This document shows positions 13,507-15,696 of a DNA stretch of 46,509 nucleotides, piece after piece. The notes under the pieces were generated by a model. The model was not told the DNA's origin and made no database searches. It saw only the letters and a program-made list of their open reading frames with translations. The position numbers were made by a program, and so were the translations under genes. The DNA is from an uncultured Selenomonas sp. (GTDB lineage: Bacteria > Bacillota > Negativicutes > Selenomonadales > Selenomonadaceae): assembly GCA_938045435.1 (NCBI GenBank), contig CALIBA010000186.1, forward strand, positions 1 through 46,509. The letters run 5' to 3'. How positions within the stretch are numbered: the stretch's first letter is position 1; the number at the start of each line of letters is the position of its first letter.

Positions 13507-13855
13507 TTAGGGTTCATTCACCACATTCATCGACGCACCGTCCATGAACGACCGCACATTCTCAGCCATCGTCTGCATGATCCGCACACGTGCCTCCTTC
13601 GTTGCCCACGAAATGTGCGGCGTGATGATGCAGCGCGGCGCAGTGAGGAGTGGATTGTCCGCGCAAATTGGCTCCTGCGACACCACATCAACCGCAGCAC
13701 AGCCGACTTTCCCGCACGCGAGGGCGGCGGCAAGATCTGCCTCCACAATGAGCTGCCCGCGCCCGTTGTTGATAATGATCACGCCGTCCTTCATCTGCGA
13801 AATCCGCGTGGCATTGATCAGTCCCTCCGTCTCCTGTGTCAGCGGACAGTGCAGG
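13507..13855 (-). pseudogene. 3' fragment of a D-2-hydroxyacid dehydrogenase (paralogue of 26763-27725)
   Basis: LHCPLT...INNGRG...ITPHISWATKEAR. Similarity to the full paralogue stops abruptly at 13855. Confidence 0.85.
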
Positions 13856-14172
13856 CCGAAGCCGCACGCAGGGATGCGGACTCCGTCTTTCACTTCTATC
13901 AGACACTCATCCGCCTGCGCAAGGAAATGCCGCTCATCCAAAAGGGCGATCTCTTCTTCCTCGAACGCGGGAACGCGAGCGTCCTCGCCTACGAGCGCAG
14001 CCTCGGCAGCAGCAAGCTCCGCGTCTACTGCAACTTCCGCGCCGCGAACACCCCACTCATGGAGGACTCCCTTGCGGGTCTTGCGGCGGCGGGCTTGACA
14101 AAACTCCTCGGCAACTATGATGGGCTTGCGGGCGACCTGCGCCCCTACGAAGTCGTCGCGCTCCAGAAATAA
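13855..14172 (+). pseudogene. 3' fragment of a GH13 oligo-1,6-glucosidase/alpha-glucosidase
   Basis: AEAARRDADSVFHFYQTLIRLRK...AYER...CNF...LRPYE is the typical GH13 C-terminus. No start codon or catalytic domain. Confidence 0.8.
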
Positions 14173-14175
14173 CGC

Positions 14176-14204
14176 TTGTCATCCGCGCACGCACCTGTTA
14201 TAAT
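14176..14204 (+). promoter_or_regulatory. Strong sigmaA promoter for the predicted antitoxin sRNA
   Basis: TTGTCA-N17-TATAAT with TG extension; no credible plus-strand gene follows. Confidence 0.8.
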
Positions 14205-14210
14205 GATCAT

Positions 14211-14300
14211 AGAAAGAACGCCCTGTGCGGCATCTTTCCAAAAATTGGTTGTTATTTTCTAAACAACCGCTCATTTGGCTGAATGGGCGGTTACTTTTTC
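14211..14300 (+). ncRNA. Predicted type I antitoxin antisense RNA (~90 nt)
   Basis: Lies between the promoter and a terminator (AACCGC...GCGGTT-ACTTTTT), has internal hairpins, and is antisense to the toxin stop codon and 3' UTR. Confidence 0.65.
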
Positions 14301-14362
14301 GTTATCGCAAGAATATAGCCTGTGGCAACGATCAACAACATGATCGCATCCATTTCGCTCAT
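14291..14362 (-). CDS. 23-aa hydrophobic peptide MSEMDAIMLLIVATGYILAITKK, putative holin-like type I toxin
   Basis: SD AGGGGGTGA inside a CCCCC-GAAA-GGGGG hairpin, single TM helix with KK tail. Too short for the ORF track. Confidence 0.75.
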   Translation of the reverse strand: MSEMDAIMLLIVATGYILAITKK

Positions 14363-14431
14363 ATCCGCTCACCCCCTTTCGGGGGAAAGATACCGCCGCG
14401 GGATGACTCCCGCCCTAGGCGTTCCTCTTTT

Positions 14432-14459
14432 ATTATATCGAACCACATCGAAAAAGCAA
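14432..14459 (-). promoter_or_regulatory. SigmaA promoter for the toxin mRNA
   Basis: TTGCTT-N16-TATAAT on the minus strand. Confidence 0.65.
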
Positions 14460-14469
14460 ACGTATTTAC

Positions 14470-14510
14470 GAAAAAGCCCGCTTGGCACATCATGCCAAAC
14501 GGGCTTTTTC
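14470..14510 (-). terminator. Intrinsic terminator after the aldo/keto reductase (insulates the TA locus)
   Basis: GAAAAAGCCCG...CGGGCTTTTTC. Confidence 0.8.
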
Positions 14511-14637: not shown

Positions 14638-15492
14638 TCACTCGATATGCAGCGGCTCTTTCCGCGTCGGTGGCGGAAATACGCGGTCAATCGCGGCGCA
14701 GTCCTCCGACGTGAGGTCAAGCGCATCCGCGCCCGCGTTGCTGACGGCGTGTTCCCGCCGTCCCGTGCGTGGAATCGCGATGGTATTGCCGTCGCGCACT
14801 GCCCACGCGAGCGCAACCTGCGCGGAGGTCGCGCCATATTTCTCCGCCATCTCCTTGAGGACGGTGCTCCCGAGGAGGTCACAGCCGAGCCGCCCCGCCT
14901 GTGCGAGCGGGCAGTACGCCATCAGCGCAACGCCATGCGCGCGCATCCACGGAAGCAGGCTGTAGTCGATTCCACGAGACCCCACGTGGTAGAGCACCTG
15001 ATTCACGACGCAGTTCTTACCGCCCGGCACCCGCCACAGCTCCTCCATGTCGGCGGTATCGAGATTCGACACGCCCCACGCGCGAATCTTGCCCGCCGCG
15101 CGTGCCTCCTCCATCGCCACGACCATCTCCGCAAGCGGACGCGCCCCGCACCAATGATAGAGATAGAGATCGAGATAGTCCGTCCCAAGACGGGAGAGAC
15201 TGCGTTCCAGCGAGGTCATGAGACGCGTTCCGTATGCGTTTGACGGCAGAACCTTTGACACGAGGAAGAGATGCGCACGGTCATACGGACGGATCGCCTC
15301 ACCGACCAACCGCTCTGCGCGGCCGTCGCCGTAGCTCTCCGCCGTATCGAGCAGCATCATCCCTGCCTCGATCCCTGCACGCAATGCCTCTATCTCGCGT
15401 GCATACGTTTCAGGTGTATCGCCAAGGCACCATGTCCCCTGCCCGAGCGCGGGCACCCGCACCCCGCCCGGCAGCTTCACCATATGTTTCAT
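14638..15492 (-). CDS. Aldo/keto reductase (YeaE-like)
   Basis: PALGQGTW, LDTAESYG, DYLDLYLYHW, WGVSN, AYCPL motifs. Start at MKHMVK with SD GGAAAGGAG. Confidence 0.92.
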   Translation of the reverse strand: MKHMVKLPGGVRVPALGQGTWCLGDTPETYAREIEALRAGIEAGMMLLDTAESYGDGRAERLVGEAIRPYDRAHLFLVSKVLPSNAYGTRLMTSLERSLSRLGTDYLDLYLYHWCGARPLAEMVVAMEEARAAGKIRAWGVSNLDTADMEELWRVPGGKNCVVNQVLYHVGSRGIDYSLLPWMRAHGVALMAYCPLAQAGRLGCDLLGSTVLKEMAEKYGATSAQVALAWAVRDGNTIAIPRTGRREHAVSNAGADALDLTSEDCAAIDRVFPPPTRKEPLHIE

Positions 15493-15621
15493 TTCGTCAC
15501 ACTCCTTTCCCCTTGTGGGCAATACGTCCAATTCTGTACCTTTCTCCAATTCTACACGAATTCGCACGATGAGAAAAGGATTCGCACGATTTTCTTCCAT
15601 AAAATACTGTGAAAAGGACTT

Positions 15622-15650
15622 TTGACAGTATTTCGATAACTCTCTATAAT
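15622..15650 (+). promoter_or_regulatory. Consensus sigmaA promoter
   Basis: TTGACA-N17-TATAAT upstream of the DUF1653 gene. Confidence 0.8.
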
Positions 15651-15696
15651 CATTCGCAGACAATGTTATTTATGCGAATGATCAGGAGGGCATCTC

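Follow-up and report, generated by a model that had tools for sequence, protein, structure and literature searches.

The question raised by the intergenic region at about positions 14,176 to 14,460 of contig CALIBA010000186.1, from an uncultured Selenomonas sp., is whether a very short minus-strand open reading frame (ORF) and a convergent plus-strand RNA gene together make up a type I toxin-antitoxin pair. Systems of type I are seldom annotated, and most descriptions come from Proteobacteria and from Bacilli and Clostridia. A first-pass annotation of the window, by which we mean the whole stretch of 46,509 nucleotides (nt) analysed here, had proposed a functional pair at this site. In agreement with this, coding selection, conserved promoters, strand-specific RNA structures, multi-copy occurrence and an asymmetric pattern of decay suggest that both genes are functional in the proposed arrangement. 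Comparison of the copies shows that the ORF is coding, that the promoters and the antisense terminator are conserved and that the RNA helices belong to the strands given below; the pattern is real and not a product of chance. We consider it probable, at about three chances in four, that the locus represents a hitherto undescribed family of type I toxin-antitoxin-like modules on the chromosome. Its predicted features are listed here, with SD for the Shine-Dalgarno sequence, UTR for untranslated region and H1 to H3 for helices of the mRNA; "toxin" is used for the putative product of the ORF.

14432..14459, minus strand: toxin promoter, with the -35 box TTGCTT (14459-14454), a 16-nt spacer and the -10 box TATAAT (14437-14432)
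14211..14426, minus strand: predicted toxin mRNA of ~216 nt, its start placed from the -10 box and its ends predicted
14418..14425, minus strand: 5' strand of H1, GGAACGCC, at the extreme 5' end of the mRNA; partner at 14215-14223
14398..14413, minus strand: H2, a variable 5'-UTR hairpin, GCGGGA-GUCA-UCCCGC, missing from 19 of 48 copies
14384..14396, minus strand: 5' strand of H3, GCGGUAUCUUUCC; partner at 14227-14239
14369..14385, minus strand: SD hairpin CCCCC-GAAA-GGGGG, with the SD GGGGGUGA within its 3' arm
14291..14362, minus strand: toxin ORF of 23 codons plus TAA, MSEMDAIMLLIVATGYILAITKK, from the ORF list and its translation
14215..14239, minus strand: 3' element of the mRNA, GGAAAGAUGCCG-CACA-GGGCGUUCU, holding the 3' strands of H3 and H1
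14176..14204, plus strand: antisense promoter, with TTGTCA, a 17-nt spacer and the extended -10 box TGtTATAAT
14211..14303, plus strand: predicted antisense RNA of ~90 nt with three stem-loops, its ends placed from promoter and terminator
14265..14302, plus strand: antisense terminator, a U-tract behind a hairpin (14265-14292) that takes in the toxin stop codon

Peptide gene, antisense gene and RNA structure

The 23-codon ORF at 14362-14291, from which the proposed pair was built, is present in the ORF list as stated. Its peptide runs from an acidic N-terminus through a hydrophobic core of 15 residues to a Lys-Lys tail, with a grand average of hydropathy (GRAVY) of 1.13 for the whole and a score of 2.57 for the core AIMLLIVATGYILAI. 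As in type I systems, the product is a small hydrophobic and potentially membrane-inserting peptide encoded on a short mRNA. In an alignment (A2) of 48 distinct full-length copies over 343 columns, the ORF is intact with 23 or 24 codons in 45 copies, the exceptions being one frameshift and two copies with a common 3' deletion. Mean column entropy at codon positions 1, 2 and 3 is 0.50, 0.25 and 1.29, and the pooled ratio of non-synonymous to synonymous differences (pN/pS) over 990 pairs is 0.233, compared to 1.15 and 1.88 for the other two frames of the same columns. Between the window copy and the paralogue in its own genome there are 11.0 synonymous differences at 14.3 sites and 8.0 non-synonymous differences at 48.7 sites. 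Judged by these comparisons, the 23-codon ORF is protein-coding and under purifying selection.

The locus had been called unannotated, and the exact window peptide is indeed missing from a collection of 15 billion proteins; of five members of 23-24 amino acids looked up there, only one is present, without a name. Public gene calls catch these peptides mostly through an upstream in-frame stretch, which yields false longer ORFs of 41-77 amino acids, and one cluster representative is listed as 'NhaP-type Na+/H+ or K+/H+ antiporter', a name that seems spurious.

On the plus strand, the convergent promoter (14176-14204) and a 12-pair terminator (14265-14292) define an RNA of ~90 nt over the stop codon and the 3' UTR, as was first proposed. 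The promoter scores 11/12 with the TG extension and is a single site in the scan, with 0.4 +/- 0.7 expected in shuffles. TTGnnn-17-TGnTAnnnT is found in 47 of the 48 copies and a perfect TATAAT in 45, and column entropy is 0.21 in the -10 box and 0.46 in the -35 box compared to 1.75 in the spacer; this contrast between boxes and spacer is, in the aligned copies, the footprint of a promoter. All 48 copies have a terminator hairpin on the antisense strand (-12.3 to -20.2 kcal/mol) with 4-7 U within the next 8 nt. The predicted 93-nt antisense RNA folds into three stem-loops (-25.8 kcal/mol, z -2.0) and is fully complementary to the toxin 3' UTR and last codons. A candidate antisense gene with its own promoter and terminator and with complementarity to the toxin mRNA, as type I systems have it, is therefore predicted at this locus. 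Coding sequence and terminator share nucleotides: the stem of the antisense terminator takes in the AA of the TAA stop codon, and the Lys-Lys(-Lys) codons template the U-tract (14291-14302), in all A2 copies and in every subfamily read, class-wide.

The toxin promoter is weaker and more variable than the antisense promoter. The sequence TTGCTT-16-TATAAT given for it in the first-pass annotation is present, but its -35 box matches the consensus at 3 of 6 positions, and since it matches no better the consensus scan missed the promoter. At least 8/12 is reached in 45 of the 48 copies, and the box columns of A2 have entropies of 0.98 and 0.71 compared to 1.50 in the spacer.

Five helices were defined on A2:

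H1, extreme 5' end of the mRNA with its 3' end: columns 69-73 with 284-288
H2, variable 5'-UTR hairpin: columns 78-83 with 88-93
H3, second 5'-UTR block with the 3' element: columns 96-106 with 268-277
H4, SD hairpin: columns 107-111 with 116-120
H5, hairpin beginning in the stop codon: columns 204-212 with 227-235

The hairpin that had been proposed to bury the SD, CCCCC (14385-14381)-GAAA-GGGGG (14376-14372), lies 9 nt 5' of the ATG (14362) and is 99.6% paired in the 48 copies. The long-range 5'-3' complementarity (14396-14384 with 14239-14227 and 14425-14418 with 14223-14215) holds up in the minimum free energy (MFE) fold, in covariation and in the asymmetry of G·U pairs. Conservation of ORF, SD hairpin and helices in relatives had been named as a check on the proposal; besides the intact ORFs given above, 94.2% of the 1584 cells of the 35 helix pairs are standard pairs in the 48 distinct copies, compared to 41-58% for slid partners. 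H1 is 96.2% and H3 98.3% paired, and two-sided changes occur in 2 pairs of H1 and in 5 of the 6 pairs of H2. In total, two-sided changes are seen in 9 pairs compared to 3.1 in shuffles, of which 0/500 reach 9, a control that related sequences can exceed without any structure.

Because of this property of the control, the strand asymmetry is a stronger argument than covariation. Where one strand forms a G·U pair, its complement has an A·C mismatch, so that the asymmetry identifies the transcript that carries each helix. On the mRNA strand, the cells of H3 comprise 415 Watson-Crick pairs, 57 G·U and 1 A·C, and those of H1 198, 27 and 8, respectively. H5 has 371 Watson-Crick pairs, 3 G·U and 49 A·C on that strand, and its G·U pairs consequently form on the antisense strand. 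On this comparative evidence, H1 and H3 are selected in the toxin mRNA, and H5 is selected in the opposite transcript as a terminator. Since H1 and H3 are selected in the toxin mRNA, this mRNA should reach ~14215 and span the whole antisense gene.

The MFE fold of the 220-nt predicted mRNA (-89.5 kcal/mol; shuffles -63.0 +/- 4.7; z -5.63; 0/200 as stable) recovers H1, H2, H3 and the SD hairpin. The modelled primary transcript is structured and has its SD sequestered, as expected of type I mRNAs. Column entropy of the 3' element is 0.34 compared to 1.15 in the adjoining variable stretch, and the complement of the 3' element (14215..14239) is the 5' stem-loop of the antisense RNA. Within that variable stretch of the 3' UTR (entropy 1.15), an A+U-rich hairpin followed by a T-run lies at 14247-14268 on the minus strand, with compensatory changes between the two copies of this genome. 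It could terminate some toxin transcripts ahead of the 3' strands of H1 and H3.

Copies, decay and relatives

A second copy lies on another contig of the same genome, with 75% identity over ~225 nt, and encodes MTEFDAIVLLVVATGYLLAITQKK. When 201 genomes of the bacterial family were searched at the DNA level, 22 of the 23 others of the same genus gave matches (1-5 per genome, several in tandem), and the 177 genomes of 39 other genera gave none. An exact-pattern scan with the invariant core over ~186,000 named species genomes returned 37 stretches, all titled Selenomonas or Centipeda. The carriers are S. noxia, S. flueggei, S. infelix, S. artemidis, S. felix, C. periodontii and metagenome-assembled genomes, which NCBI places in the Negativicutes, Selenomonadales. 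With a peptide profile, 22 of 25 other genomes of the genus are matched at E <= 5e-7 and the remaining three weakly (E 0.1-0.8). Tandem arrays also occur elsewhere, with three copies within 3.5 kb in another genus.

Decay was surveyed in 59 loci of the window subfamily, made up of the 48 copies of A2, 7 partial ones and 4 short matches. Six copies, including that of the window, fell short of stricter thresholds for the antisense side but were counted as antisense-intact, since their terminators (-12.9 to -19.1 kcal/mol, 4-5 U) are within the usual range. Both sides are intact at 44 of the 59 loci and decayed at 3. At 12 loci the toxin side is deleted or disabled and the antisense promoter and terminator are kept; an intact toxin with a broken antisense gene was found at 0 of the 59. 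Seven of the 12 losses are deletions of the toxin promoter or 5' part. The others are an insertion between SD and ATG, a frameshift, a copy that lacks the SD hairpin and also carries a G-to-D change, and two copies with a common 3' deletion and a degraded promoter. Orphan antisense genes are represented by L018 (about 1309), L030, L054, L144, L145 and L146, which lack, through deletion, the toxin promoter and 5' UTR and either the whole ORF or most of it, with the antisense promoter and the 3' element intact; one orphan directly adjoins a full copy. Such genes may be of interest for cross-talk between copies.

Beyond this subfamily, the peptide profile gives full-length matches at E 1e-6 to 1e-3 in three further genera. 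Sixteen loci with weaker profile matches were read and include two more subfamilies of the genus, MDSYECILLIVFATGYILAVKKK and MSYYEFILILVLVTGYIVAVKKK (L121-L128), and members of three other genera; their peptides include MSYYEFILILVLVTGYIVAVKKK within the genus and MTLYDVLLFLVVATGFIIAINKK in other genera. All sixteen have a TGnTATAAT promoter, a 5' block GGCGGCTACTTCTTCAC that is complementary through G·U pairs to a 3' block GTGAAGAGGTAGCCGCC, the arrangement KK(K)-TAA-CCGCC...GCGGTT and a convergent extended -10 promoter. In all of them an alternative anti-SD/SD hairpin, CACCTC...GGGAGGTG, replaces the SD hairpin of the window type.

The signature AARAARTAACCGCC-N8-24-GCGGTT is found in 107 of 401 genomes sampled class-wide and its reversed control in 0 of 401. 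Its frequency differs widely between families, among them, by our numbering:

Family f1: 38 of 99 genomes
Family f17: 27 of 92 genomes
Family f25: 11 of 20 genomes
Family f7: 8 of 15 genomes
Family f23: 4 of 4 genomes
Family f24: 0 of 61 genomes

Of 12 signature loci read from outside the family of the window, seven carry the full design with peptides of 29-35 amino acids (e.g. MSILDVMAILGFGLGCFKTGYLVGRNAKK), three have a related peptide on the other strand, one is a 39-amino-acid ORF that reads through the signature in another frame and one is a remnant. One peptide cluster from outside the family is named 'hypothetical protein [Phascolarctobacterium sp.]', a genus that NCBI places in the Acidaminococcales. 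The 23-amino-acid and the longer peptides align across a 5-residue gap and have in common an N-terminal M-[ST]-x-x-[DE], a G-[YF] motif and the KK tail. In one genus of f17 (L129-L131), the signature is matched in its palindromic sense, and a candidate peptide of ~30 amino acids (...MLSWLAIASYTIAVFSLGYTLGKDYVHKQK) lies on the opposite strand and likewise ends just before a CCGCC hairpin.

The genome of the window also holds a second, different type I-like locus at ~18520-18800 of contig C271. It has the promoter TGCTATAAT, the SD hairpin CCCCTGCAGGGGG, a GTG-started peptide of 26 amino acids (MTLYEKLSLLIGAATLAVNIIFLIFR when read with an initiator Met), a 5' UTR complementary to a 3' block, and then a convergent TATAAT.

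As to its surroundings, the window copy is flanked by two 3' ends, that of a gene remnant (stop at 14170-14172, plus strand) and that of the minus-strand ORF 14638-15663, whose translation reads like an aldo/keto reductase. One further feature belongs to this context:

14470..14510, either strand: bidirectional terminator between the 14638-15663 gene (minus strand) and the toxin promoter

This hairpin and its T-run, which the promoter and terminator scan did not list, were confirmed by reading and by a scan of our own. The role of an insulating part of the module that had been assigned to it does not hold: a strong version is present in only 12 of the 48 copies, and it is therefore regarded as local context outside the module. 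Two head-to-head gene remnants occupy 13516-14169. The C-terminal ~113 codons of a D-2-hydroxyacid dehydrogenase (13516-13854, minus strand) are 75% identical to residues 257-369 of the full gene that adjoins the paralogous copy, and the C-terminal ~109 codons of a GH13 alpha-amylase-family gene (13843-14169, plus strand) are 76% identical to an intact gene flanking the locus in a relative. It looks as if a single deletion took the 5' halves of both genes and the region between them.

Recurrent neighbours of the copies are a GH13 alpha-amylase-family gene and genes for a 2-hydroxyacid dehydrogenase, a YkuD transpeptidase, a polysaccharide pyruvyl transferase and an ABC-2 transporter; ten cluster representatives were scanned for these names and four have no Pfam name. 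The DNA of the locus has no match in phage or plasmid collections. An addiction module of a mobile element was rejected on this ground and since none of the six Pfam-named recurring neighbours is a mobile-element gene. A leader peptide or attenuator was likewise rejected, as no downstream gene lies in the same orientation.

Proposed mechanism

The mRNA would exist in a closed form, in which H1 and H3 pair the 5' end with the extreme 3' end (the 5'-3' lock) and the SD lies in a GC-rich hairpin with a GNRA loop. In this form low translation and a protected 5' end are to be expected, with the SD hairpin acting as a constant brake on translation and the fold-back stabilising the mRNA and hiding its 5' end. 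From the stronger convergent promoter, the ~90-nt antisense RNA would be made, with perfect complementarity over the entire 3' UTR and, within it, to the 3' strands of H1 and H3. The two RNAs may form a duplex of ~90 bp, a likely substrate of RNase III, and duplex formation would free the mRNA's 5' end from the fold-back and lead to decay. Because the antisense 5' domain and the mRNA 5' UTR are almost identical in sequence, the two would compete for the 3' element; the antisense 5' domain would displace the 5' UTR from the 3' lock and expose the 5' end to decay.

The fold of the mRNA was modelled in 46 of the 48 copies, L041 and L023 being left out, with the 3' UTR masked to mimic bound antisense RNA. 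Masking raises the unpaired probability of the first nine nt of the mRNA from 0.07 to 0.49, and the SD remains paired, its mean unpaired probability changing from 0.21 to 0.16. Transcription of both RNAs, toxicity of the peptide, neutralisation by the antisense RNA and the nucleases involved are what we infer beyond this.

Taken together with the diverged relatives, the locus might belong to a superfamily that extends over the whole class Negativicutes, built on one RNA chassis, with an antitoxin that acts by competition for the lock and with coding and RNA signals compacted into each other. We put this wider idea forward tentatively, as the less probable outcome.

Known systems and competing explanations

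The known families do not contain this locus. The window peptide, 19 peptides of its subfamily, 7 distant ones of 23 amino acids and 7 longer relatives all stay below the cut-off of every Pfam and NCBIfam family. Rfam gives seven weak matches at E <= 10, none of them to a type I antitoxin family, the best with 20.9 bits compared to a gathering threshold of 45. The first-pass annotation had likened the pair to the putative holin-like toxins, and membership in Hol_Tox (PF16935; a model of 34 positions with a curated cut-off of 23.3 bits) is not borne out: neither copy of the own genome is listed at E <= 10 in a six-frame search, the best match in this genome (15.1 bits) lies at another site, and a Pfam scan of 33 family peptides (19 + 7 + 7) gave no Hol_Tox match. 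Searched against 1.84 billion representative proteins, the family profile retrieves 32 matches at E <= 0.001, all visibly of the same family and many with mis-called N-terminal extensions. Matches to Heimdall-CTERM (18.5 bits, cut-off 24) and to the Rfam family ctRNA_pGA1 (20.9 bits compared to 45) were judged compositional or due to chance, as were the weak ones to Psb35, EpuA, MpPF26, BA5345_fam and Inovirus_G7P_2.

In its architecture the locus resembles several type I systems. The layout ascribed to it, that of txpA/RatA and bsrG/SR4 in Firmicutes, agrees with the T1TAdb definition of an antisense RNA on the 3' side that overlaps the mRNA and the 3' part of the ORF; in both systems a convergent, cis-encoded antisense RNA covers the ORF end and the 3' UTR (PMC8594479). 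For bsrG/SR4, 3'-end pairing leads to RNase III decay and to SD sequestration (PMC8309996). Like BsrG and TxpA, the toxin here is small and hydrophobic with a cationic C-terminus. BsrG has 38 amino acids (PMC8309996), whereas the peptides here have 23-24; there is also no sequence relationship to txpA/RatA or bsrG/SR4 in Pfam, NCBIfam or Rfam, profile-profile comparison lying outside this scope. In contrast to bsrG and txpA, the mRNA here is closed by a 5'-3' fold-back whose 3' strands lie inside the antisense target, the host is a diderm member of the Negativicutes and the loci lie outside prophage-like contexts.

The fold-back recalls aapA/IsoA of Helicobacter pylori and hok/Sok of plasmid R1, where a structured transcript is closed by 5'-3' pairing, local hairpins sequester the SD and the fold is kept with compensatory changes (PMC6733600); in our locus H1 and H3 provide this long-distance closure. 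In those systems, however, the long-distance interaction hides the SD and 3' trimming activates the mRNA (PMC8594479, PMC6733600), whereas here a separate local hairpin sequesters the SD, and the antisense RNA lies over the 3' UTR together with the lock's 3' strands. The antisense RNAs of AapA and Hok target the 5' region or the translation start, and here the target is within the 3' UTR and the last codons.

The Hol_Tox family also consists of short single-pass peptides of Firmicutes, often unannotated and with a basic C-terminal tail. In ibsC/SibC of Escherichia coli, the toxin is very short, IbsC having 19 amino acids (PMC8309996), and the loci are multi-copy, chromosomal and sometimes tandem (PMC2887945). 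SibC covers the entire ibs ORF (PMC8594479) and the antisense RNA here only the last codons, and the two are unrelated in sequence. The remark that the peptide is shorter than typical members is thus true for the Gram-positive families but not in general, given the 19 amino acids of IbsC. As read from the DNA, the design joins a 5'-3' lock to an antisense RNA that overlaps the 3' side, the lock's 3' strands included, and compacts coding and terminator signals.

Several points weigh against a toxin-antitoxin function. Since no known toxin or antitoxin family matches, the assignment to the type I kind is one of architecture alone. The hydrophobic core has just 15 residues, the toxin -35 box of the window copy is weak (3/6) and its promoter was uncalled by the scan, and the limit on the covariation control given above applies. 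In every modelled state the SD is closed, and no activation step for translation is evident. The asymmetric decay is what would be expected if the peptide were harmful without the RNA, but it is only suggestive because mutations have a larger target in the toxin-specific part than in the antisense promoter and because some of the events are common to related genomes. Furthermore, the predicted type I peptide YhzE-2 was non-toxic when over-produced (PMC2887945).

The most probable of the rival explanations is a non-toxic small membrane protein, such as a regulatory or stress micro-protein, with a cis-antisense RNA and the structure of the mRNA setting its level. Coding selection and conservation of the antisense gene would fit it equally well, YhzE-2 is an example of over-produced candidates that were harmless (PMC2887945), and the copies lie among ordinary chromosomal genes with none in phage or plasmid collections. 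We nevertheless consider it unlikely, since an SD hairpin, a 5'-3' lock and a stronger antisense promoter are typical of genes with harmful products, an SD/anti-SD hairpin and a non-translatable primary transcript being hallmarks of type I systems (PMC6733600), and since the family is multi-copy, sometimes tandem, and turning over, with 12 loci left antisense-only after loss of the toxin side and 0 in the reverse state.

That the locus is a very distant true member of the TxpA/BsrG/Hol_Tox group, and not of a separate family, appears highly improbable. It would account for the same layout with a convergent 3' antisense RNA over the ORF end (T1TAdb, TxpA/RatA, BsrE-G-H; PMC8594479) and for the common cationic C-terminus (PMC8309996). 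The contig C271 locus, of the same RNA design, has a 26-amino-acid peptide with 14.7 bits to Hol_Tox, under the cut-off of 23.3, and can be counted in favour. Presumably the group also has a similar N-terminal motif. However, PF16935 lists neither own-genome copy, none of the 33 scanned peptides has a Hol_Tox match, the family profile retrieves only itself from the 1.84 billion proteins and no Rfam antitoxin family is matched, with the reservation that for peptides this short a missing profile signal cannot fully exclude common ancestry.

Finally, a non-coding intergenic repeat (a terminator cluster or an element like a repetitive extragenic palindrome, REP, or a miniature inverted-repeat transposable element, MITE) with an incidental ORF can practically be dismissed, for although the region is rich in hairpins and T-runs, repeated within genomes and located between convergent genes, codon-position variation and a pN/pS of 0.23 compared to >1 in the other frames need selection at the level of translation, the peptide is kept across genera where the nucleotide sequence is no longer alignable, and there are two conserved promoter footprints.

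The preferred reading, a type I toxin-antitoxin-like module of a separate family, also bears on where such systems occur. According to PMC12390103, type I systems are so far known only from Proteobacteria, Firmicutes and Tenericutes. The first-pass annotation knew of none characterised in Negativicutes, and full-text searches on type I systems together with Selenomonas, Negativicutes or Veillonella agree, yielding passing mentions only; among the papers matched on toxin, antisense and Selenomonadales subjects, the one with Selenomonadales concerns type III systems. Within the library searched, no publication on this family came to light. Selenomonas and Veillonella are absent from the main texts, supplements aside, of T1TAdb (PMC8594479) and Fozo et al. 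2010 (PMC2887945).

The family has no Pfam, NCBIfam or Rfam model and is nearly invisible to gene callers, and it gives models for the annotation of such loci. About a quarter of the sampled Negativicutes genomes carry the signature, including common oral species of Selenomonas and Centipeda. The co-varying series of natural copies is a data set for the joint action of 5'-3' locks, SD hairpins and 3'-overlapping antisense RNAs. If the wider idea of a class-wide superfamily were true, diderm Firmicutes would gain their first described type I family, and the overlap of the stop codon with the terminator stem and of the Lys-Lys codons with the U-tract would tie the C-terminus of the peptide to termination of its antitoxin.

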